64,000 nucleotides of DNA, from contig DASQOZ010000070.1 in the NCBI GenBank assembly GCA_035644195.1, forward strand, positions 463-64,462. Reading direction: 5' to 3'. Shown here piece by piece: positions 4,823-58,837 of this stretch (within the stretch, counting starts at the first letter, position 1; the number at the start of each line of letters is the position of its first letter). The stretch comes from Candidatus Methylomirabilota bacterium. GTDB taxonomy: Bacteria > Verrucomicrobiota > Verrucomicrobiia > Limisphaerales > UBA11358. Under the pieces are notes generated by a model. The model had not been told where the DNA came from and made no database searches. It saw nothing but the letters and a program-made list of their open reading frames with translations. The position numbers and the translations under genes were made by a program.

Positions 4823-4897
4823 TTGGAGTGCGGCAGCCTTCTGCCGCTTTCGATCGGCAAACCGGTTTGAAAGCGCCAGAGGACTGGCGCAGTCCAA
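4823..4897. repeat. Double-hairpin REP-like element
   Basis: Two 7-bp stem / 4-nt loop hairpins: gcggcag-cctt-ctgccgc (4830-4847) and gcgccag-agga-ctggcgc (4873-4890). They are enclosed by pairing termini ttggagt...agtccaa. Intergenic, just after the SPFH operon. Confidence 0.6.
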
Positions 4898-9039: not shown

Positions 9040-9102
9040 CCGCAGAGTCGCCGAGACGCAGAGAATTTCAATTTTCAACTCTGCGCCTCCGCGTCTCTGC
9101 GG
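9040..9102. repeat. Imperfect palindromic element (CCGCAGAG...CTCTGCGG)
   Basis: The arms ccgcagagtcgccgagacgcagag and ctctgcgcctccgcgtctctgcgg flank an AT loop. Located between the ABC ATPase and permease genes. Confidence 0.6.
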
Positions 9103-12063: not shown

Positions 12064-12069
12064 TTTCAT

Positions 12070-12126
12070 GGGAGGGTCGCCGTGTCGACGACCCAAATTT
12101 TGGGACGGCGACACGCCGTCCCTCCC
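12070..12126. repeat. GGGAGGG...CCCTCCC palindromic element
   Basis: gggagggtcgccgtgtcgacgaccc aaatttt gggacggcgacacgccgtccctccc. The termini pair, and each arm contains its own hairpin with a tgtc or acac loop. Confidence 0.7.
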
Positions 12127-12173
12127 ATTCACAAGATTGCTTCACGACAAATCCCTGCTAATCTTTTCGTTCC

Positions 12174-13907
12174 GTGACCAAAGGAAAAAAATCTAAAAAT
12201 CGTCCCTTGCGCGTTGGTTTGATTTCACTCGGCTGCGCGAAAAATCTCGTGGACGCCGAGGTCATGCTCGGCTCGCTGATGAAAAGTGGAGTCGAAATCA
12301 CCAACGACGCCGCGCAGGCCGACGCGCTCATCGTCAACACCTGCTCCTTCATTGACTCCGCGCAGGAAGAAAGCGTGGACACGATTCTTGAATCCGTCGA
12401 ACTGCGCGATGCGAACCGGCGCGGCCAGGCCGTCATCGTTTCCGGCTGCCTCTCGCAGCGTTTCCGCGAGGAACTTCCAAAATTATTGCCTGAAGTGGAT
12501 GCGTTCATGGGCATTGACCAGGTCGCGCGAGTCGGCGACATCGTCGGCAAAGCCATTGCCAGCCGTGCGGAAAAAAATGGGAATGAAAAATTAAAAATTA
12601 AAAATTCAAAAACGAAAATTTCCGCGCGCCTGAACGAACTGGAAAAGAACCGCGACCTTTCCGCCCGCGAAAAAGAAGAATCTTTGCGCGGCACGGACAA
12701 ATTTGGCAAAACCAAAACCGTCGTAGCGGCGTCTCGGGAGAGCGCCGCCAATTTATCTTTGGCGGAAGGAACGGCGGCGTTCTCCCGAAACGCCGCTACG
12801 ATCTTCGATGTCACTTCGCGCCCCGTCTTCATTCCCGATTTCGAGACGCCGCGCTTCCGGCTGACGCCGAAACATTTTGCCTATCTGAAGATCGCCGAGG
12901 GTTGCAACCATCCGTGCAGCTTCTGCATCATTCCACGCATGCGCGGCTCGCACCGCAGCCGCACGCAAAAAGACATTGTGGCTGAAGCGAAGGCATTGAT
13001 CGCCGACGGCGTGAAGGAGATCAATTTAATTTCGCAGGACTCGACTTATTACGGATTGGATTTGCGTCCGAACCATTCGCGAGCGATTTCTTCGCCTGAA
13101 AAATTTTCCGCCGCCGCAAAATCGCTCGCCGCCGATGCCACGACCATTTGTTCGCTACTCCGAGAACTGAATTCGATCAAAGGCGATTTCTGGATTCGCC
13201 TGCTCTACACGCATCCGGCGCACTGGACGGACGAATTGATTCAGACAATCGCCGATTGCAAAAAAGTCGCGCGCTACGTTGACATTCCGCTGCAACACAT
13301 CCACGAGAATATGCTCGAACGGATGCGCCGCGAAACATCGCAGCAATACATCGTTGATTTGATTCAGAAAATCCGCGCCGGAATTCCGGGAATTGCGTTA
13401 CGGACGACCTTCATCGTCGGTTTTCCGGGCGAAACGGAAAGCAGTTTTGAAACGCTGCTTGATTTTGTCCGTGAAACGAAATTCGAACGGCTCGGTGTGT
13501 TCACTTATTCGCAGGAAGACGGCACGCTCGCTGGAAAAATGGCCGGACAAATTCCCGACAAGGTCAAACAGAAGCGCCGCGAACTCGTTATGGCCGCGCA
13601 ACACAAGATCGCCCGGCAAGTTTCAGAGAATTTTGTTGGCCGCGAAATCAAAGTCCTCGTCGAAGGCCAGGCGAATGAAAAGCAGCTTCAACAGGCGAAC
13701 GTCAGTTCGTGGGAACACGGCTTGATTCGCGAAGCAGAAACTTCAAAACTTCAAATTCAAAATTATCTCATTGCTCGCGGCGAAGCCGACGCGCCGGACA
13801 TTGACGGTCGCATTTACATTCGCGGCAGATTGCCAATCGGCGAATTTGCCAAAGTCAAAATTATCGGCCACACGGATTACGATTTGATTGCCGAGCCGGT
13901 GGCGTGA
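12174..13907 (+). CDS. rimO: Ribosomal protein S12 methylthiotransferase RimO (with about 100-aa repeat-derived linker insertion)
   Basis: GTG start. MTTase N-domain LRVGLISLGCAKNLVDAEVM, radical-SAM motif EGCNHPCSFCIIP and a C-terminal TRAM-like region. The linker between the domains is far longer than in canonical RimO. Confidence 0.85.
   Translation: MTKGKKSKNRPLRVGLISLGCAKNLVDAEVMLGSLMKSGVEITNDAAQADALIVNTCSFIDSAQEESVDTILESVELRDANRRGQAVIVSGCLSQRFREELPKLLPEVDAFMGIDQVARVGDIVGKAIASRAEKNGNEKLKIKNSKTKISARLNELEKNRDLSAREKEESLRGTDKFGKTKTVVAASRESAANLSLAEGTAAFSRNAATIFDVTSRPVFIPDFETPRFRLTPKHFAYLKIAEGCNHPCSFCIIPRMRGSHRSRTQKDIVAEAKALIADGVKEINLISQDSTYYGLDLRPNHSRAISSPEKFSAAAKSLAADATTICSLLRELNSIKGDFWIRLLYTHPAHWTDELIQTIADCKKVARYVDIPLQHIHENMLERMRRETSQQYIVDLIQKIRAGIPGIALRTTFIVGFPGETESSFETLLDFVRETKFERLGVFTYSQEDGTLAGKMAGQIPDKVKQKRRELVMAAQHKIARQVSENFVGREIKVLVEGQANEKQLQQANVSSWEHGLIREAETSKLQIQNYLIARGEADAPDIDGRIYIRGRLPIGEFAKVKIIGHTDYDLIAEPVA
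12586..12620. repeat. Heptanucleotide tandem repeat (AAAAATT-like, 5 units) inside rimO
   Basis: aaaaatt aaaaatt aaaaatt caaaaac gaaaatt, read in-frame as KLKIKNSKTKI. Confidence 0.8.
12723..12799. repeat. GTAG...CTAC palindromic element (copy E), in-frame inside rimO
   Basis: The left arm gtagcggcgtctcgggagagcgccgcc pairs with the right arm ggcggcgttctcccgaaacgccgctac. Translated as VVAASRESAANLSLAEGTAAFSRNAATI. Confidence 0.75.
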
Positions 13908-13908
13908 T

Positions 13909-13972
13909 GGGAGGGACGGCGTGTCGCCGTCCTTGACTAAATAAAATGGGACGCCGACACGGCGTCCCTCCC
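13909..13972. repeat. GGGAGGG...CCCTCCC palindromic element (likely also rimO terminator)
   Basis: gggagggacggcgtgtcgccgtcc ...loop... gggacgccgacacggcgtccctccc, beginning 2 nt after the rimO stop. Same family as 12070-12126. Confidence 0.7.
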
Positions 13973-14021
13973 AAAGTTTTCTCTTGGTGTTCTTGGTGCC
14001 TTGGTGGTTCAATTCTTGGAA

Positions 14022-15735: not shown

Positions 15736-16500
15736 ATGTCCACCCTCATTTGCTTCGCCCTGAAAGAAGAAGCCGCGCCGTTTCGGAAAATCGCGGCGGG
15801 TATCAGCTTGCGCCGCGACCACCATGTTTCAATTTTGCTCACCGGCATCGGCCGCCAGAACGCCGAAAAATCCCTGCGCGAATTTCTGAATTCTTGTAGG
15901 AGTCGAGGTAACCAGACTCAAATTAAAGAAGAGTTAGAGACTCCTCACGTCGTCTCCTACAAACCGGATTTGGTGCTGACCTGCGGTTTCGCCGGCGGAC
16001 TGAATCCAGAATTGAAACTCGGCGACGTGATTTTTGAAATTTTCCCCAGTAGCAGCCGACGTGAGTCGGCTCAAACTGAAACCGGAAATCAATCAGAGCC
16101 GATTGACATCGGCTGCTACGATAAATTGATTGCCGCCGGCGCAAAGCCCGCAAAAATTTTCTGCGCCGACCGCATCGCCACGACCGTCGCCGAAAAGAAA
16201 AAATTGCGCGACGAAACCGGCGCTGATGCCGTCGAAATGGAATCGGCGGCGATCCACGTCGTCTGCCGCGAACGCGGCATTCCCTGCGCCACCGTCCGCG
16301 TGATCTCCGACACGGCCAATGAAGATTTGCCGCTGGATTTCAACACGCTTTCCAAGCCGGACAAGAATCTGGATTTTGGAAAATTATTCCTGGCCATCGC
16401 CAAATCGCCCGGAAAAATTCCCGCGTTGATGCAGTTGCAGAAGAAAACCAAATTCGCGGCGGAGCAACTGGCGGCGGTTTTGGAGAAAATAATCCGGTAG
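15736..16500 (+). CDS. PNP/UDP-1 family nucleosidase (MTA/SAH nucleosidase or HpnG-like) carrying two in-frame repeat insertions
   Basis: LLTGIGRQNA, CGFAGGLNP and DAVEMESAAI are typical of MtnN/HpnG-type phosphorylases. It lies convergent to the hopanoid-type genes. Confidence 0.6.
   Translation: MSTLICFALKEEAAPFRKIAAGISLRRDHHVSILLTGIGRQNAEKSLREFLNSCRSRGNQTQIKEELETPHVVSYKPDLVLTCGFAGGLNPELKLGDVIFEIFPSSSRRESAQTETGNQSEPIDIGCYDKLIAAGAKPAKIFCADRIATTVAEKKKLRDETGADAVEMESAAIHVVCRERGIPCATVRVISDTANEDLPLDFNTLSKPDKNLDFGKLFLAIAKSPGKIPALMQLQKKTKFAAEQLAAVLEKIIR
15895..15961. repeat. GTAG...CTAC palindromic element (copy A), in-frame in nucleosidase CDS
   Basis: tgtaggagtcgaggtaaccagactc ...aaattaaagaagagtta... 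gagactcctcacgtcgtctcctaca, translated CRSRGNQTQIKEELETPHVVSY. Confidence 0.8.
16049..16119. repeat. GTAG...CTAC palindromic element (copy B), in-frame in nucleosidase CDS
   Basis: gtagcagccgacgtgagtcggctc ...loop... gagccgattgacatcggctgctac, translated SSSRRESAQTETGNQSEPIDIGCY. Confidence 0.8.
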
Positions 16501-16552
16501 GGCCGCGTTGCCGCGCGGTCCAAATTTGGGCGGTGCAGCAGCACCGCCCTAC
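16497..16552. repeat. GTAG...CTAC element (copy F) between convergent genes; probable bidirectional terminator
   Basis: gtagggccgcgttgccgcgcggtcc aaatttg ggcggtgcagcagcaccgccctac. The termini pair and each arm has its own hairpin. The terminal TAG and CTA triplets are the stop codons of both flanking genes. Confidence 0.7.
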
Positions 16553-25671: not shown

Positions 25672-28600
25672 ATGAGCGTAAAATTAGAACCCATCCGCCC
25701 CGACAAATTGTCGTCGCATCTCATCGCGCACATCAACGTCAAGCTCGCGCTCATCGGCTGCGCGCCGGTGGCGATTGAAGGCAACCGGGAATTTTCGGAA
25801 ATTGTTTCTGCGATGGCTGCACAATCGCGGGAGAAAGACCGGTTGCTTGGAAATTATCTCAATCCTGCCGACCAACGCATCCAAACTTTTCTTTTCGATT
25901 ACCTGCAAGATGTTCCGGTGCCGAAATTGCCGTCGCACACGTTCACACTCGACCGCGCCGGACTCGCGCGCGTGCTGTCGCTGCCGATTGACCGCAACGA
26001 ATTTCATTCAGAAATCATCAATTCCTATCGCGTCGCCAACGGCGTGCTGCACAATCCAAAAAGCGACCGGCGCACGACGCAGGGAATTTTTCACGTGACG
26101 GAGGGCGGTTTGCCGATTCCCGACGACAAACTCGGGGTGCCGAAAATCGCGTTCGCCAAAATGCTCGCGCTGGCGCTCAACCCGCCGCGCGAAATCATGC
26201 GGCTTCCATTTACTGCCACACAGGCGCAACCGGCGGAATGTTTCGTCTCGCTGCTGCTCCGCCCGATTGTTTGCCCGGAAGTTCCCGGCTTCACGCCGGA
26301 AAAAACGATGGAAATCCGATTTTTTGTTCCGGGAAATCTCGTTAGCAACCTGGATTTTATCGAAAGCATTTTCGGAAACGGCGGCGATCCGATTTTGCCT
26401 GAAAATGATTCCGCGCTTGATGCTGAACATTGGACTGGTCACACCGGCTGCGTCATCCTCGCGCCGCATTTAACCAAAGCGACAAAAAAATCCGTCGGCC
26501 TGCCGCATTGGGACAAAGCGACGGAACGCCAGCGTCGCGACGGGATGTGCTGGAAAAATGAAAATGAACTCTACAACAACGGCAGCGCCTTTAAGCTGAC
26601 CTGCCGGGACGAATCCGGCGTCATCGTCACGCTCATCGCGGACAATTACTACGGCTATTGCAAAAAAGAAGTGAAGACGCAAATCAGTTTCGCCGCGAAT
26701 CTTTTTGGCAATTGCGAGGAGGAGCACGCAGGCGGCGCGCTGGTTTTTCCGAGCTACGACCTCGGCGAGGAATTCAGCGGCGACGTCCATGTCAAGCGCA
26801 TGGGCTATTCGTTCACGGACATGACTTCGCGCTTCGGCAGCGCGATGGACGTGAAGCAGGAAGGTTTTGCAGTGGACAAAAAATTTCCCGAAATCATTTA
26901 TGTCCCCGAAATGGCGCACTTCGACCTGCATAACCAGAAAATCTCATGGGAAAATGCCGGCGGCAAACACAGCATCAAATTGCAGCCGGAAAAAACTTAC
27001 GTCCGCCCGTCCGGCTACAAGGTGAAAATGGAAAAACCGCCGGGCGCGCACCGGATGTGGCGACTCGTCGGCACCGTCGCGGAAGGAACTCTTTGCCACA
27101 AACCCAGCACGGTTTCCGGCGGCGGCAAATCGGAAATTTCAAAACCGATCACCGATGCGATTTTGACCGGGCCTGTTTTTGTCACCGATTTCAAAGCGGA
27201 TTTTGATCGCGTCGCCGAATGGATTGACCACGATTATGCGAACCGGTTTGCCGACAAGACGAAAAAAGATTCGCGCTCGATTCTTGCGGCGGAACGTTCG
27301 CTCGGCTCGGTCATCAAATTGCTCACGCCGGACAAACGCGAATACACCCCCGATTACAACACATGGCTGAATTCGATCCCGCAATACGTCAAGGAACTTG
27401 TCTTCGTCGTGAAGCGTTATTACAAGCCGGAGTGGAACACGAATTGGCGCGACCACTTCAGCGTGGACATCATCAACGGCATTCCGGGCAACGAACTGAA
27501 ATGCGATAATCGCAAAATTGTGACGACGTATTTGCGCGTCGGTTTCGACGATGATGGCGCGTGGCGGACGTTTGGCTTGCGAAAAGATTTTCATCCGTCC
27601 GTGAAAATCCAAACGGAAGACGACATCACCGCGTCGGTGATTGTGCCGCCAGCCGCAATTGAAAATGTTCCGAACGCGGACAAAAATTCCGCGCTCAAGT
27701 TCGTCAAAAATTGCGAACAGCGTTTGTTCCAACGGCCGGACGACGCGATTCATCGCGGCTACGACAAACAGGCCGAATCCGATTTCGCGCAACCGGACAA
27801 TTTCTTTTCCAATTACGAACCGCTACCGGCGAAAGCCGCGCATGAATTGATCGAGGACGCGATCGGCTTTTATCAATTCACCGAGCCGATGCAATCGCTC
27901 ATCCGCGAAATTGCTGAAGTTGGCCAGCCGGAATTTTTTGTGTCAACCGCACATCCCCGATTGGTTGACGGCAAGCCGAGTAAAAATCCGCGTTACTTGC
28001 AAAAGCGTCCCGACCTCGTCAATCCGCGCGAAAGTTATCTGGCGGAAATGGCCGCGCGATTGCGGCGTCGCGTGCCGTTGAGCGAACCGCTGCATACGCC
28101 TGTATCCGTCGTATTGCCCGGACGCCGCAACAATCCGCCGGAACACGGCATCCGCTCGCTCGCCTGTTACAATCCGATTCATTTCATGGAGTTGCCGGAA
28201 TTGTTCATGGAATTTATTTGCAGCATGACGGGCAAATCGCCTTCGACGACGGGCGCGGGTTCGGAAGGCGCGTTGACCAAAGGCTCGTTCAACGCACTGC
28301 CGCCAATCATTGACCTGAACAACGCGCTCGTCTCGTTTATTCTCACCGGCCATAACGCGTTCGTGACGGCTGCCGGTTTTGTCGGACCAAAAGTGCGCGT
28401 GGACCACGACGTGAGTTTGATTGTGCCGGAAGTTTTTTGCCGGATGTCGCCGGAAGAGCGCGATCCGAAGTTTTTAATTGAAAATCATTTTCTGGAAAAG
28501 TGCGAAGACTTCGAGCACAACGGAAAAAAAACCCTCGCCAGCCATCTCGGTTATCGCATCAACGCGCGATTTGTTCACTCATTTTTTGGCCGTGTGTTCA

Positions 28601-29088
28601 ATCATCCGCACGCCGTGTTCACGGAAGAAATGTTGAAACCGGAATTGCAGAGCGCGGATATTTTTGCGGACGGCATGGACAACATCGTCGCCACGCAAAA
28701 GCGCGTCGCCAGAATGTATTTTGACGATGGCAGCATCGCACAGGCGTGCCCGCCGTTGAAGACGTTGCTCCACATCATGCTCAATGACGAATGTGAGGGC
28801 AAAGGGCTTGGCCATCCCGAAGTCCGGAAACTTTTTATGCGCGAACATCTTCTGGCAAGTGACTGGTATGCGGCGCGGCTCGTAGCCAAGCAAAAAATTG
28901 ACTGTTTGTTATGGAAGCGACACGTTGAATATCTCAACCAGTTTTTGCGCAAGCCAAGCCACGGAGACGTGGCCGGCAGTTTGAAAATTTCAGGGCGCTT
29001 GACATATGCGCGAAAAAAATTGGAGGAGATCGAATCAGCGGATTACCTGGACAAATTATCCGGCACGCTTGGCGCAGAACCCGTCTAA
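25672..29088 (+). CDS. Large conserved cytoplasmic protein, candidate PPi-dependent PEP carboxykinase family
   Basis: 1138 aa with no TM helix or signal peptide. The size matches the roughly 130-kDa PPi-PEPCK class, and there is a P-loop-like VSGGGKSEISK. The family assignment rests on memory of size and motif only and has not been verified. Confidence 0.35.
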   Translation: MSVKLEPIRPDKLSSHLIAHINVKLALIGCAPVAIEGNREFSEIVSAMAAQSREKDRLLGNYLNPADQRIQTFLFDYLQDVPVPKLPSHTFTLDRAGLARVLSLPIDRNEFHSEIINSYRVANGVLHNPKSDRRTTQGIFHVTEGGLPIPDDKLGVPKIAFAKMLALALNPPREIMRLPFTATQAQPAECFVSLLLRPIVCPEVPGFTPEKTMEIRFFVPGNLVSNLDFIESIFGNGGDPILPENDSALDAEHWTGHTGCVILAPHLTKATKKSVGLPHWDKATERQRRDGMCWKNENELYNNGSAFKLTCRDESGVIVTLIADNYYGYCKKEVKTQISFAANLFGNCEEEHAGGALVFPSYDLGEEFSGDVHVKRMGYSFTDMTSRFGSAMDVKQEGFAVDKKFPEIIYVPEMAHFDLHNQKISWENAGGKHSIKLQPEKTYVRPSGYKVKMEKPPGAHRMWRLVGTVAEGTLCHKPSTVSGGGKSEISKPITDAILTGPVFVTDFKADFDRVAEWIDHDYANRFADKTKKDSRSILAAERSLGSVIKLLTPDKREYTPDYNTWLNSIPQYVKELVFVVKRYYKPEWNTNWRDHFSVDIINGIPGNELKCDNRKIVTTYLRVGFDDDGAWRTFGLRKDFHPSVKIQTEDDITASVIVPPAAIENVPNADKNSALKFVKNCEQRLFQRPDDAIHRGYDKQAESDFAQPDNFFSNYEPLPAKAAHELIEDAIGFYQFTEPMQSLIREIAEVGQPEFFVSTAHPRLVDGKPSKNPRYLQKRPDLVNPRESYLAEMAARLRRRVPLSEPLHTPVSVVLPGRRNNPPEHGIRSLACYNPIHFMELPELFMEFICSMTGKSPSTTGAGSEGALTKGSFNALPPIIDLNNALVSFILTGHNAFVTAAGFVGPKVRVDHDVSLIVPEVFCRMSPEERDPKFLIENHFLEKCEDFEHNGKKTLASHLGYRINARFVHSFFGRVFNHPHAVFTEEMLKPELQSADIFADGMDNIVATQKRVARMYFDDGSIAQACPPLKTLLHIMLNDECEGKGLGHPEVRKLFMREHLLASDWYAARLVAKQKIDCLLWKRHVEYLNQFLRKPSHGDVAGSLKISGRLTYARKKLEEIESADYLDKLSGTLGAEPV

Positions 29089-29202: not shown

Positions 29203-29292
29203 TGGCGGAAGGGGTGGGATTCGAACCCACGGCAGCCTTGCGACTACTCCTGATTTCGAGTCAGGTGCCTTTAACCACTCAGCCACCCTTCC
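29203..29292 (-). tRNA. tRNA-Ser (anticodon CGA), encoded CCA
   Basis: The reverse complement is GGAAGGGTGGCTGAGTGGTTAAAGGCACCTGACTCGAAATCAGGAGTAGTCGCAAGGCTGCCGTGGGTTCGAATCCCACCCCTTCCGCCA. It has a 7-bp acceptor stem, the anticodon loop CT-CGA-AA, a long variable arm and a GGTTCGAATCC T-arm. Confidence 0.9.
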
Positions 29293-32114: not shown

Positions 32115-33794
32115 TCACGAACCCATCATACTTCTCAACGGTAAAAATTCCAACTCCGCTCCCGCTTCCAACTCCGCACAATTCACCGGCACGCGAATCA
32201 GCGCGTTCGCCGCTGCGAAGCAAGTCACGTCGCCGGAACTCGACCATTTCAGCGGATGCAAATTTATTTCGCCGTTCAAAAACTCCAACCGTGCCGGCCA
32301 GAGCGTTTCGCGCGGACACGGCTTGTCGTCCAATTTTGTGGCGAGCCTGCCACGCATAAATTTTGGCGCAATTTCGCCGGTCAGTTTCGCGAGCGCCGTG
32401 GCGACGGCGAAATGAAAACAGACAAAATGCGAGAGCGGGTTGCCCGGCAAACCAAACGCCACGCGCGAACCGTTCACGCCGAAGATGAGCGGCTTGCCAG
32501 GACGCACGTTGACTTGTGAAAAAGCGGTTTCAAAACCGAGCCGTTCCAGCAGCGGACGCGTGAAATCTTTGTCGCCGACACTCGCTCCTCCGGAAATCAA
32601 AATCAAATCCGCCGCCGCGATGCGGTTCAAATCAAGTTGCGCCCACGCCGCCTCAAAATTTTCCGGCAGATGTTTCTGGTCCAAGTCACACGAAAAGTTT
32701 TGCAACAGGCCGCGAATCAAAATCGAATTGCTGTCGCGGATTTGCCCCGGCTCCGGCGTTTGATCAGGCGGAATAATCTCATCGCCCGTCGTGAAGTGTG
32801 CCACGCGCAATCGTGGACTCACCAGCGGCTGCGTGCAGCCCGCCGTCGCCAGCAACGCGAGTTTGCCCGCGTCCAGCCGCACGCCGGATTTCATGAGCGG
32901 CTGTCCAGCCTTCACATCTTCGCCGCGCTTGCGGAGGCTTGATCCACTTTCGAGTTTTGTGATTTTAATTTTGTCGCCGTTGCGCTCGACGTGTTCCTGC
33001 ATTACTACGCGCACACCGTCGCACGGCAACGCCGCGCCCGTCGCCACGCGCACCGCTTCACCGCGCCGGAGCAGGCGCGGTTTCCAATCCGCCGCGTGGA
33101 TCGTGTCCACGATTTGAAAATTGTCGGACGCATCATCGGCCAGAATTGCGTAACCATCGCGCGTGGAGCGGTCATTCGGCGGCAAATCTTCCGGCGCGCA
33201 AACCGTTTCGCGCAGCACGCGGCCAAAAGATTCTTCCAGCGGAACGCGAACCGGCGGCAACGGCTGGCAGCTCGAACTGATTTCCGAAATAGCTTCGTCC
33301 AACGATTTGTAGGAGACGACGTGAGGGGTCTCTGATTTTTTTGAAGTGAGACTCGTCACCTCGTCTCCTACAAAATCAATTGGCAACGCGCGTCGTTTCC
33401 AGATCGGCACGTCGCGTTTGAGGCCATCCATGAATTCGCCGGTCAACGCGATGGCTTCCGCGCGATGCCTGGCGGCGACGCCAAGATAAATTGCCGTTTC
33501 GCCGACGGGAATGATTCCGACGCGATGAATCACTTTGGCGGCGAGACACGGATGCCGCGTGGAAATGTCCTGAATCAGCCGCCGGATTTCGCGCGCGGCC
33601 ATTTCAGGATAGGCTTCATATTCAAGCGCGGAAATTGTTCCGCCATTTTCTTCATCACGGACCAAGCCGCGAAATTCAATCCACGCACCAAGCGCGGTCT
33701 TTGCAGACGGCCACCATTGCGGCGGAGAAATTTTTTCCGCAATCGGTCCTTTCGTGAGTTGAATTTCAATTTCCATGCGACAAAATAATTTCAT
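32115..33794 (-). CDS. MoaE-MoeA fusion protein (molybdopterin synthase catalytic subunit + molybdopterin molybdenumtransferase)
   Basis: The N-terminal roughly 145 aa are MoaE-like (EYEAYPEMA...DVPIWKR). The rest is MoeA-like (SLDEAI...RSTRDGYAI...SGGASVGDKD). The joint is the repeat-encoded DFVGDEVTSLTSKKSETPHVVSYK. Confidence 0.85.
   Translation of the reverse strand: MKLFCRMEIEIQLTKGPIAEKISPPQWWPSAKTALGAWIEFRGLVRDEENGGTISALEYEAYPEMAAREIRRLIQDISTRHPCLAAKVIHRVGIIPVGETAIYLGVAARHRAEAIALTGEFMDGLKRDVPIWKRRALPIDFVGDEVTSLTSKKSETPHVVSYKSLDEAISEISSSCQPLPPVRVPLEESFGRVLRETVCAPEDLPPNDRSTRDGYAILADDASDNFQIVDTIHAADWKPRLLRRGEAVRVATGAALPCDGVRVVMQEHVERNGDKIKITKLESGSSLRKRGEDVKAGQPLMKSGVRLDAGKLALLATAGCTQPLVSPRLRVAHFTTGDEIIPPDQTPEPGQIRDSNSILIRGLLQNFSCDLDQKHLPENFEAAWAQLDLNRIAAADLILISGGASVGDKDFTRPLLERLGFETAFSQVNVRPGKPLIFGVNGSRVAFGLPGNPLSHFVCFHFAVATALAKLTGEIAPKFMRGRLATKLDDKPCPRETLWPARLEFLNGEINLHPLKWSSSGDVTCFAAANALIRVPVNCAELEAGAELEFLPLRSMMGS
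33308..33372. repeat. GTAG...CTAC palindromic element (copy C) at the moaE/moeA joint
   Basis: tgtaggagacgacgtgaggggtctc tgatttttttgaagt gagactcgtcacctcgtctcctaca. The arm sequences are closest to copy A. Confidence 0.8.
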
Positions 33795-52531: not shown

Positions 52532-52603
52532 TGTAGCAGCGGACGTCAGTCCGCTCTGATTTATCTTAAAAAAGAAATGAGCCGGCTCACGTCGGCTGCT
52601 ACA
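52532..52603. repeat. GTAG...CTAC palindromic element (copy D), intergenic
   Basis: tgtagcagcggacgtcagtccgctc ...tgatttatcttaaaaaagaaat... gagccggctcacgtcggctgctaca. Confidence 0.8.
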
Positions 52604-57313: not shown

Positions 57314-58837
57314 TCACTCCAAAATTTGCCGTAGCAAAATTTGAAAAACTTCCGTTGATTCAATTTCTTTCACGCCCAAAAATTCTGGCCTTTCACTGAT
57401 GATGACCGGCCAATCGCGTTTGTCCGCCGGACGCCGTCCGTGCGAACCTTTCACCAGCGTCGCGTCGAGCGGAATCACGTCCATCAACATCCGCAGGCCG
57501 AGTTTCTTTTGCAGCAGCCGCCACGCGATTTTTAATTTCGGCAGCGGAATCTTCGGGTCGAGAAACAATTCCACCGGGTCGTAGCCGGGTTTGCGATGGA
57601 TGTCCACCGTCCGCGCAAAATCCGGCGCGCGCGCGTCGTCGAGCCAGTAATAATAAGTGAACCACGCGTTCTCCGGCGCGACGGCGATTAAATCTCCGGC
57701 GCGCGGATGGCCAATGCCCGCTTCGGCCTTTTCCTTTGCACCGAGGACGGTCACGTCCACCTCGACCTGTTTCTCCAGCACGTCGCGCACTTTCGATTCG
57801 AGCGAGCGGTCGTTCAAATAAATGTGCGCGACTTGATGATCGGCCACGGCAAAAACTTTGCTCGCGCCCGCGTCGAGAATTTCCATGCCGAGTTCGTCTT
57901 TGATTGCAAGCCAGCCTTTTTGCCGGAACAAACGGTTCAAATGAATCGGCGCGTCCACGTTCGTGATGCCGTATTCGGAAAGCAAAACGATTTTCACGCC
58001 GCGCGCGCTGAAATATTTGATGAGGTCGCCGACGATAGAATCAATCGCCTGCAAATCGGGAATGATTTTGGGATTGGTGGAACAAGCGTCCCGCTTGTTG
58101 AATTCGGCGTCTCGCCGAATTTTATTTCCGGAAGAATTTTCCGGCGGGACGCCGGAATGAACAGGCGAGACGCCTGTGCCACCCACATAAACGCCATGCC
58201 GCTGCAAATTGTAATCCAAATGCGGCAAATAAATCAGGTTCAGCGGCGGCGCGTATTTATTTTCAATCCACTTCGCCGATTCCGCAATCCAGCGCGTCGC
58301 GCAATCAGCAGAGCCTTGCAACGTTTTGATTCCCGCCGCTGGTCCCCAAAATCCGAAGAACGGAAATTCGCCCAAATCTTTTTTGATTTCTTCGCGGATG
58401 GAATATGGCCATGAATAAATGTCGAAAACTTTTCCGCCGTCGGCCTTGTAAATCGGGCGCGGCGTGATGGAATAATCCGCGCTCGAATACATGTTGAACC
58501 ACCAAAACACATTTGCGATTGATGATTTACGATTTACGATTTCAGATTGTTTTCGGAGTGCGTCCCAGATTTTTTTGCCGTGAACGATGTGATTCGATTG
58601 TTTCCAAAATTGAACTTCAGACAATTCACGATTATGCCAGCCGTTGCCGACGATGCCATGGTCGCGCGGTAATTTGCCGGTGAGATAATTCGATTGTGCC
58701 GTGCAGGTGACGGCGGGAAACGCGGGCGCGATGTGCGCGAGCGCGCCGCGTTTACGAAATTCCGCGATGCGTGGCGTATGTTCGCCGATGAGCGCTTCGG
58801 TGAGGCCGACAACGTTGATGACCGCGACACGATTCAT
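57314..58837 (-). CDS. Alkaline-phosphatase-superfamily nucleotide pyrophosphatase/phosphodiesterase (EboF-like)
   Basis: N-terminus VINVVGLT...AFPAVTCTAQSNYLTGKLPRDHGIVGNGW (metal/Thr nucleophile region). An ATGA overlap joins it to the upstream DHQS-like gene. It carries two repeat-derived in-frame inserts. Confidence 0.7.
   Translation of the reverse strand: MNRVAVINVVGLTEALIGEHTPRIAEFRKRGALAHIAPAFPAVTCTAQSNYLTGKLPRDHGIVGNGWHNRELSEVQFWKQSNHIVHGKKIWDALRKQSEIVNRKSSIANVFWWFNMYSSADYSITPRPIYKADGGKVFDIYSWPYSIREEIKKDLGEFPFFGFWGPAAGIKTLQGSADCATRWIAESAKWIENKYAPPLNLIYLPHLDYNLQRHGVYVGGTGVSPVHSGVPPENSSGNKIRRDAEFNKRDACSTNPKIIPDLQAIDSIVGDLIKYFSARGVKIVLLSEYGITNVDAPIHLNRLFRQKGWLAIKDELGMEILDAGASKVFAVADHQVAHIYLNDRSLESKVRDVLEKQVEVDVTVLGAKEKAEAGIGHPRAGDLIAVAPENAWFTYYYWLDDARAPDFARTVDIHRKPGYDPVELFLDPKIPLPKLKIAWRLLQKKLGLRMLMDVIPLDATLVKGSHGRRPADKRDWPVIISERPEFLGVKEIESTEVFQILLRQILE
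58081..58177. repeat. Composite of four consecutive short hairpins, in-frame inside phosphodiesterase CDS
   Basis: aacaagcgtcccgcttgtt, aattcggcgtctcgccgaatt, ttccggcgggacgccggaa and acaggcgagacgcctgt. The stems are 7-8 bp and the loop cores GTCCC/GGGAC and GTCTC/GAGAC are mutual reverse complements. Confidence 0.75.
58517..58551. repeat. Heptanucleotide tandem repeat (GATTTAC-like x5 = reverse complement of the 5273 unit) inside CDS
   Basis: gattgat gatttac gatttac gatttca gattgtt, read on the minus strand as QSEIVNRKSSI. Confidence 0.75.

Follow-up and report, generated by a model that had tools for sequence, protein, structure and literature searches.

In-Frame Dimers of GTAG-Tagged Palindromic Repeats in Two Loops of an HpnG-Like Nucleosidase from Uncultured Limisphaerales

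Introduction

Rickettsia palindromic elements (RPEs) are tolerated in surface loops of proteins whose orthologs lack them, RPE-1 measuring about 100-150 bp, and their hosts are reduced intracellular Alphaproteobacteria; they were reportedly described by Ogata and colleagues, in Science in 2000, as selfish DNA lying in frame in many unrelated genes. Two palindromes with comparable behaviour, referred to here as elements A and B, are carried within a nucleosidase gene on a 64,000-nt stretch of contig DASQOZ010000070.1 (assembly GCA_035644195.1), from a genome placed among the Limisphaerales in the Verrucomicrobiota. This whole stretch is hereafter called the window, and the origin, class and fate of its in-frame palindromes are the subject of the present analysis.

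Closest among the described systems are the repetitive extragenic palindromes (REPs) that Di Nocera et al. 2013 (BMC Genomics 14:522, PMC3733652) sorted into GTAG and CGTC superfamilies. GTAG REPs are there defined by a length of ~20-40 bp, a stem of 5-13 bp and the tag GTAG (or a variant, e.g., GTGG) at one end; they are mostly intergenic, near the 3' ends of convergent or co-directional genes, often form inverted dimers, and occur in the Planctomycetes-Verrucomicrobia-Chlamydiae (PVC) superphylum. The verrucomicrobium Opitutus terrae is highly enriched in GTAG REPs and has the largest number of intragenic ones, with 70 entries in Additional file 3 of that article and some open reading frames (ORFs) carrying two inserts, and dimers or grouped repeats that encode 20-30 aa make up over half of the intragenic inserts taken together. 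Rickettsia RPE-4 and RPE-6 are equated in the same work with CGTC-tagged REPs. An initial annotation of the window had mentioned no described equivalent of in-frame palindromes in PVC genomes; it was wrong on this point, since Di Nocera et al. 2013 describe GTAG REPs in PVC, intragenic in O. terrae, and with this behaviour already on record for Verrucomicrobia the claim to novelty fails.

Two further systems have to be considered. In REPIN-RAYT systems (Bertels and Rainey 2011, PMC3116915; Nunvar et al. 2010, PMC2817692), two inverted REPs with a GTAG tag and a short spacer form a hairpin. [quoted passage not shown]

Lineage-Specific Inserts at Two Sites of the Nucleosidase

The host of A and B is a 254-aa nucleosidase of the PNP_UDP_1/MTAN fold, HpnG-like (15736..16500, plus strand). 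Its ORF stays open through A (65 nt, 15896..15960, plus strand, with a palindrome stretching to 15894-15962), which is read as CRSRGNQTQIKEELETPHVVSY at aa 54-75, and through B (71 nt, 16049..16119, plus strand), read as SSSRRESAQTETGNQSEPIDIGCY at aa 105-128; no stop interrupts either segment, and the unbroken frame noted by the initial annotation is thereby upheld. A protein search returned 5,932 homologs of the host, and in an alignment of the best 120 of them (69-100% identical, 221-319 aa) presence and absence of a segment are visible at both insert places. The nucleotide comparisons rely on 80 loci (1.35 Mb) from a scan of species-representative genomes, with 82 orthologs; the records of these relatives are mostly titled as Verrucomicrobiia, Limisphaerales or 'subdivision 3' metagenome-assembled genomes (MAGs), a minority carrying other phylum labels.

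All 82 orthologs are intact ORFs of 207-262 aa, open through every insert type, and the net length of each insert is divisible by 3. Site 1, where A lies in the window, is an empty 6-aa loop (e.g., ATHSPE) in 44 of the 82, and site 2, where B lies, is an empty 9-aa loop (e.g., TSDETLRAK) in 15. Orthologs with neither segment measure 207-211 aa, which agrees with the length of about 208 aa that had been estimated for the protein without them. Homolog alignment, proposed at the outset as a way to recognise lineage-specific segments, thus does so: A and B are, on this comparison, evidently lineage-specific in-frame insertions, with a base state of ~208 aa in which both sites are empty.

The occupied sites hold a variety of elements. 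At site 1, A is found in 15 orthologs, a GTGG-headed element (GGTGGGGCGAGCGTCCCCGCGAGCCG...) in 8, short scars of this GTGG-headed element, with the hairpin interior deleted, in 10, and a 105-111-nt multi-hairpin element in 5. Occupants of site 2 are B (18 orthologs), A (5 orthologs), an A/B hybrid, the R type CGGAGGGACGAGTTCCACGAGTCCC... (12 orthologs) and the P type (10 orthologs), and 19 orthologs have short in-frame tandem heptamer repeats there (GTCCAAA, CTCAACT, CGGAACT, TTCAACC), for example relatives L035, L061, L071, L077 and L014. Over both sites, the insert types comprise A (GTAGGAG...), B (GTAGCAGCCGACG...), the A/B hybrid, the GTGG-headed G (GGTGGGGCGAGCG..., with 27-nt deletion scars), W, R and P, and the different palindromic or repeat elements number at least four at site 1 and at least five at site 2, plus the deletion scars. 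All long inserts in the orthologs fold as hairpins, and on a neighbour-joining (NJ) tree of the nucleosidase the site states are scattered even among the closest relatives. The hybrid, at site 2 of L026 (4841-4930), is a dimer with an A-type left arm and a B-type right arm, and suggests recombination or half-element replacement between REP subfamilies. The same heptamer arrays were also seen forming the arms of other palindromic elements in relatives' genomes (e.g., L021 20466-20527).

Net insertion amounts to +63 nt at site 1 and +60 nt at site 2, values that are multiples of 3 only after changes in the flanks. As the GTAG...CTAC units themselves (65 and 71 nt) are not multiples of 3 but every net change is, it is selection, and not the element, that keeps the frame.

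A Functional Host Gene with Inserts in Predicted Loops

The nucleosidase gene itself seems to be in good order. Among the 15 A-bearing orthologs, the flanks of the insert have a dS of 0.88, a dN of 0.147 and a dN/dS of 0.17, and the residues E11/E12, M168-E169-S170 and D192, which align with the EME and SD motifs of MTA/SAH nucleosidases, are invariant among orthologs. As far as substitution patterns can tell, these data show a host gene that is alive and under purifying selection, and the conserved blocks flanking the inserts are intact, as had been noted. The host protein scores 76.7 bits against Pfam PF01048, and 104 bits against the NCBIfam HpnG model (TIGR03468), below its cutoff of 187.

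An AlphaFold model of the host (mean predicted local distance difference test, pLDDT, of 75; predicted template modelling score, pTM, of 0.74) has MTAN structures as its best Foldseek matches (E about 1e-12). The pLDDT falls below 50 only at aa 56-74 and 104-124, and these stretches are devoid of secondary structure; the first separates helix 40-53 from strand 79-88, and the second strand 98-101 from helix 128-133. The model shows both inserts in predicted loops of the nucleosidase fold, which answers the question of insert location that structure prediction had been meant to settle. The 82 orthologs and the model together bear out the RPE-like behaviour that had been attributed to A and B, namely lineage-specific in-frame insertion of dispersed palindromes in loops.

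Class of the Elements

The six palindromes listed in the initial annotation were all recovered: besides A and B, these are C (33309..33371, palindrome 33306-33374, minus strand), D (52533..52602, unstranded), E (77 nt, 12723..12799, palindrome 12721-12801, plus strand) and F (16497..16552, unstranded). Their GTAG..CTAC units measure 65, 71, 63, 70, 77 and 56 nt from A to F, mostly not multiples of 3. Each of the 12 arms of A-F has GTAG at its start and a stem-loop inside, and the arms are inverted around an AT-rich variable spacer, all copies in the window being inverted dimers. A combines GTAGGAGTCGAGGTAACCAGACTC as its left REP with GTAGGAGACGACGTGAGGAGTCTC as its right REP (reverse complement); in B, each arm reads GTAG-CA-GCCGAC-GTGA-GTCGGC-TC. 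The stem-loop reads GCCGAC-GTGA-GTCGGC in B, for example, and GAGAC...GTCTC in both A and C; F, an inverted dimer of two self-folding GTAG REPs, has stems of 9 bp.

Since each arm is a GTAG tag with a stem-loop, and the inverted pair folds as one hairpin, the class is that of the REP dimer or REPIN. From their arm structure, A and B are thus assigned to inverted dimers of GTAG-tagged REPs (REP doublets, REPIN-like). The initial annotation had missed this class, each arm being a classical REP. It had also grouped the six copies as one family: the GTAG start and CTAC end are indeed common to all, yet the set is heterogeneous. The A and C arms share GTAGGAG..., B and D share GTAGCAG..., a close relative of the A/C type, and E (GTAGCGGCG...) and F (GTAGGGC...) belong to separate GTAG families.

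With at most one mismatch allowed, the window contains 8 occurrences of the arm motif GTAGSAGNCGASGT, where dinucleotide shuffles give an expectation of 0.02, and none of 100 shuffles reaches 8. Predicted RNA folding energies, with z-scores against shuffles, are -23.0 kcal/mol (z -3.7) for A, the most degenerate copy, -39.8 (z -8.5) for B, -34.7 (z -7.6) for C, -35.7 (z -8.1) for D, -57.1 (z -9.7) for E and -37.8 kcal/mol (z -5.7) for F. No direct target-site duplication flanks A-F, and in five of the six copies the flanks lengthen the palindrome by 1-4 nt; a consistent target motif or duplication was looked for at the insertion junctions, and none was found. Rfam has no family above threshold for the elements, chance miRNA-like hairpin matches lying far below gathering scores.

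Conserved Arms and Variable Peptides

The inserts evolve very differently from the codons around them. Synonymous divergence (pS) is 0.066 in insert A versus 0.518 in its flanks, with a dN/dS of 2.1, and 0.19 in insert B versus 0.48, with a dN/dS of 1.4. Third-position identity in the insert reaches 0.92, being ~1.0 in both arms and ~0.42 in the two central hairpin-loop codons; outside the insert it is 0.58-0.65, with sharp boundaries at the element ends. What is conserved is the palindrome of the DNA or RNA, and the peptide is its apparent passenger.

Within-genome comparisons add to this picture. In L012, sites 1 and 2 share a 65-nt GTAG...CTAC unit at 100% identity, its loop being peculiar to this genome, versus 87% identity to orthologous copies, and identity between the two copies ends exactly at GTAG and CTAC. 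These near-identical copies at two sites reveal what can be read as recent activity, by copying within the genome or by gene conversion. The two copies of L022 are 91% identical to each other versus 84% to orthologous copies, and within-genome likeness in both relatives points to copying or gene conversion, which it would favour over site-specific selection. In the window, A shows 90% identity to orthologous copies and 82% to C, so that it is old there.

Genomic Location and Search for a Transposase

The initial annotation had suggested counting copies and the ratio of coding to intergenic positions. In 1.38 Mb of relatives' DNA, 34 A/B arms occur outside the nucleosidase gene, 22 of them intergenic, 9 at gene edges and 3 in coding sequence (CDS), as located with crude gene calls (longest ORFs). 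A census of all strong hairpins, which misses imperfect elements such as A and F, placed 31 in intergenic DNA, 29 at gene edges and 28 in CDS; ~90% of the DNA concerned is coding. The hairpins are thus strongly biased towards intergenic positions, with a considerable minority inside genes. In the window, D and F are each situated between convergent genes, as expected of GTAG REPs.

REP-associated tyrosine transposases (RAYTs) were sought by phmmer with an E. coli RAYT sequence as the probe; it matched L073 and L063, and both matches were then checked by NCBIfam and PDB comparison. The RAYT of L073 (18360-18815) scores 82.9 bits on NCBIfam NF047646 (Y1 HUH transposase; cutoff 80), has HUH and Y motifs, and has 4er8, the E. 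coli TnpArep, as its best PDB match; no Pfam match was obtained for it. It is flanked by inverted GGTAGGGCGCG... REPs, which the arms of F resemble, such REPs flanking RAYT genes in relatives. Among 80 metagenomic loci of RAYT homologs, about 40 of the 70 with enough flank show a clear inverted pair of GTAGGG-type REPs around the gene.

The match in L063 (13717-16803, contig JAMFSJ010000026.1) is of a different kind, as it is a PriA with an in-frame insertion of ~270 aa immediately ahead of its Walker A motif. In this insertion, two REP dimers enclose a RAYT-like domain, with the same palindrome on both sides (peptide SAANILLAEPT...CRQDVGST); the RAYT-like domain has HVH and Y..NP motifs, and its scores are 32 bits against Pfam Y1_Tnp and 70.3 bits against NF047646, whose cutoff is 80. 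The PriA of L055 lacks the insertion, and in L080 a 115-nt element with several hairpins occupies this position of PriA. It seems unusual for a replication-restart helicase to contain a complete REP-RAYT unit within its reading frame, and no relevant work turned up when the literature was searched for RAYT together with PriA.

Further Elements and Neighbouring Genes

The nucleosidase gene is not the only one in the window to carry palindromes in frame. C, an A-type dimer, lies at aa 141-163 in the inter-domain linker of a MoaE-MoeA fusion (ORF 32115-33794, minus strand), ending as ...VGDEVTSLTSKKSETPHVVSYK, and encodes ...ETPHVVSYK, like A. This linker is polymorphic among the 120 closest homologs (32-59 aa) and is a mosaic of peptides that, judged by back-translation, are apparently REP-derived (e.g., VGDDVRSL...ETPHVVSY, VAANVNLRT...HRRLQK, AAVCDRR...AHRAPLQ, SSAFRRPEPAKAGTPN, GRVTPCAP...GQRTARPT). 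A role of C in making the moaE-moeA gene fusion was considered and rejected, since all 120 of these homologs are already one protein with both domains.

E, of the GTAGCGGCG type, is in frame at aa 184-209 of RimO (12174-13907), between the UPF0004 and radical-SAM domains, and is found at the same place in RimO of L024, L071 and L072, with arms conserved and loops differing. C and E, which the initial annotation had listed as family copies, are thus present where it had put them but are more than plain extra copies, both being in frame in genes of their own. The RimO of the window has 577 aa versus 432 positions in the family model; a second GTAG dimer was observed near the C-terminus in RimO of L061, L072 and L074, and a third element in that of L074.

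A GTGG-headed 108-nt palindrome (GTGG...CCAC, 58076..58183, minus strand) made of four small hairpins lies in frame at aa 219-254 of a type I phosphodiesterase gene (ORF 57314-58837, minus strand) and folds with -61.4 kcal/mol (z -9.3). It encodes ...GGTGVSPV..., and GTGVSPV is the peptide of the GTAG-19 entries of O. terrae in Additional file 3 of PMC3733652; the shared peptide suggests a REP family common to different Verrucomicrobial orders. With C, E and this element in genes besides A and B, four genes in 64 kb have five in-frame palindromes.

The two other GTAG dimers lie between genes. D, a B-type dimer, is intergenic between convergent ORFs, a classical REP location. F is placed between the convergent nucleosidase and EamA-like genes and supplies the TAG stops of both from its GTAG/CTAC tags (16498-16500 on the plus strand, 16549-16551 on the minus strand), the stop of the nucleosidase gene thus lying inside F. 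L001 and L003 lack F, and there the two genes have a 14-nt overlap; in several relatives, other palindromes occupy this spot downstream of the nucleosidase gene. Beyond EamA, the host-gene neighbours include YdjC (HpnK-like) and SQS_PSY, with synteny kept in relatives; the last two fit a hopanoid neighbourhood, and the neighbour genes suggest a putative hopanoid-related (HpnG-like) role of the nucleosidase.

An inverted-repeat search of the window also found strong intergenic palindromes without the GTAG tag, at 4823-4897, 9040-9102, 12068-12128 and 13908-13973. Those at 12068-12128 and 13908-13973 are of the same type (TGGGAGGG...CCCTCCCA, arms GACGGCG-TGTC-GCCGTC) and lie one on each side of the RimO gene, and that at 9040-9102 has a near-unchanged counterpart in L027. 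Elsewhere in the window are a tRNA gene (29206-29292, minus strand) and a 1138-aa ORF (25672-29088, plus strand) with no Pfam match at E up to 0.01; the latter had been suspected to be PriA, a candidate that was rejected. Finally, the window protein VE344_07420 is labelled 'Methylomirabilota bacterium' at NCBI, most close relatives being Verrucomicrobiia/Limisphaerales MAGs, and odd labels also occur among other relatives (Bifidobacteriaceae, Acidiferrales, Sulfopaludibacter); 'Methylomirabilota' and these odd labels likely reflect mis-binned or mislabelled MAG records.

Origin and Maintenance of the Inserts

How do palindromes come to lie in two loops of a conserved enzyme, and what keeps them there? 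The explanation that we favour, and regard as quite probable, combines RAYT-type spread of REP dimers with survival restricted to in-frame, stop-free insertions in loops, and with translation of the inserts as disordered loops. REP dimers would spread as single-stranded hairpins through the action of a RAYT and would land mostly between genes; in essential or useful genes, only in-frame, stop-free insertions in a permissive loop or linker survive selection, as the ortholog series and the structural model show. On this view, the two loops of the HpnG-like nucleosidase are such permissive sites, repeatedly colonised, replaced and partly deleted by several REP families in the Limisphaerales lineage. 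The inserted 22-24 residues would be translated as disordered passenger loops, in line with the frame kept in all 82 ORFs, and the arms may be kept alike because they are copied or converted from other REPs of the genome, or through selection acting on the hairpin.

Several observations weigh against this explanation. A purely neutral passenger model does not predict the strong conservation that the arms show at synonymous sites, which needs an extra cause, be it gene conversion from other copies, re-insertion or hairpin selection. Neither junction corresponds to a clean insertion: at site 1, 69 palindromic nt were gained and 6 nt (GCCACC) lost, and at site 2 the old loop was replaced; with GTAG..CTAC units that are mostly not multiples of 3, the junctions give no readout of insertion chemistry. 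The NJ tree, built from a protein of ~200 aa, is too poorly resolved to count independent events, and translation of the inserts is argued from frame preservation. The 64-kb window encodes no RAYT, and neither the 80 metagenomic loci nor the relatives yielded a RAYT locus flanked by A/B-type REPs, the flanks being of the F-like GTAGGGCG type; mobilisation of A/B by a RAYT is therefore proposed by analogy.

The same arm conservation is what makes another explanation worth weighing, in which the hairpins were exapted and are kept in the CDS as nucleic-acid structures, for example for ribosome pausing between folding units, for mRNA stability or as the site of a REP-binding protein. Arms that are near-invariant at third positions, next to flanking codons with a dS of 0.88 and hairpin-loop codons free to vary, would be expected under such a function, as would the like arm/loop pattern of E in RimO orthologs and the placement of both inserts exactly between secondary-structure elements. 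However, many orthologs do without either insert and have an equally conserved host protein, the same loops are filled by elements quite unlike each other, and there are scars of deletion. Within-genome copies are also closer than orthologous ones in L012 (100% versus 87%) and L022 (91% versus 84%), and the sequences display no compensatory changes at the one variable arm pair, so that we consider exaptation improbable.

Two other possibilities concern the nature of the elements and of their products. The elements could be MITEs, deletion derivatives of insertion sequences (IS) mobilised by a DDE transposase, with target-site duplications on either side: they are short, scattered palindromes whose centres are AT-rich, and in-frame MITEs are known. 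Yet no direct duplication is seen at A-F or in the comparison of empty and filled sites, the flanks extend the palindrome in five of six copies, and no IS with such ends was seen, although no systematic IS search was made; the unit copied in L012 ends exactly at GTAG and CTAC, each arm is a GTAG-tagged stem-loop, which is the REP signature, and RAYT-REP units exist in relatives. A MITE origin is accordingly very improbable in our judgement. Still less credence can be given to the idea that the segments are not translated as such, in a decaying pseudogene or through hairpins bypassed or removed in expression. Hairpins as stable as -23 to -40 kcal/mol within an mRNA may invite it, but a bypassed or spliced element need not keep the frame or avoid stops, and all 82 orthologs are open through every insert type with net lengths that are all multiples of 3; the flank dN/dS of 0.17 and the invariant catalytic motifs speak against decay, and no Rfam family matches.

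The RAYT-type spread and loop-only survival favoured here could be extended to a set of preferred sites. Limisphaerales genomes may have landing pads (the two nucleosidase loops, the MoaE-MoeA linker, the RimO inter-domain linker and the PriA linker before Walker A) that are re-colonised by different REP families, with arms actively maintained by RAYT-linked conversion or hairpin selection, and with the REP-RAYT-REP unit in priA as the extreme case. This is a tentative proposal, which we think is rather unlikely to hold in full. If true, REP/RAYT would be a steady source of new, fast-turnover peptide segments, and even domains, in free-living bacteria.

Significance

In-frame selfish palindromes, usually tied to reduced intracellular genomes (Rickettsia), are also common in abundant, uncultured, free-living Verrucomicrobia of soil and peat, and the known picture is left unchanged in kind. 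For annotation, the inserts lengthen proteins, lower family-model scores (as for HpnG, 104 against a cutoff of 187) and break domain alignments. The ortholog series represents a natural experiment on protein loops that tolerate 20-35 extra residues, and a clean case of a conserved DNA palindrome with an unconserved peptide, which sharpens the question of what keeps REP arms intact.

Comparison with Known Systems

A and B are RPE-like in behaviour, and their membership is that of GTAG REP dimers. Like RPEs, they are palindromic insertions, in frame in conserved genes, located in loops and absent from orthologs; unlike RPEs, they have a GTAG tag rather than CGTC or none, and occur in a free-living soil organism with a large genome, so the likeness is taken as one of behaviour, no relationship in sequence being expected. 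With MITEs they have in common that they are short, non-autonomous palindromic repeats able to add peptide segments, whereas MITEs have IS-derived terminal inverted repeats and target-site duplications, and the present elements have REP stem-loop arms and no duplications. The GTAG inverted REP pair folding as a hairpin, together with a RAYT gene that has its own flanking REPs in relatives, is shared with REPIN-RAYT systems; in contrast, REPINs are described as extragenic, and a RAYT for the A/B subfamily was not found in the window or the recovered loci.

The greatest likeness is to the intragenic GTAG REPs of O. terrae described by Di Nocera et al. 2013. These belong to the same phylum and have a GTAG (sometimes GTGG) tag with a stem-loop, often as inverted dimers folding into a single hairpin; in housekeeping genes they add 15-50 aa in frame, at times twice in one ORF, and they use the same reading frames, the GTAG end encoding V-G... 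and the CTAC end ...Y. Differences lie in the order, here uncultured Limisphaerales, and in the stems (GAGACGACGTGAGG for A and GCCGACGTGAGTCGGC for B). Beyond what the passages of that article followed here mention, the present locus adds an ortholog series in which one and the same pair of loops is variously empty, filled, replaced or scarred, arm conservation at the nucleotide level with a dN/dS of at least 1, and an identical element at two sites of one gene.

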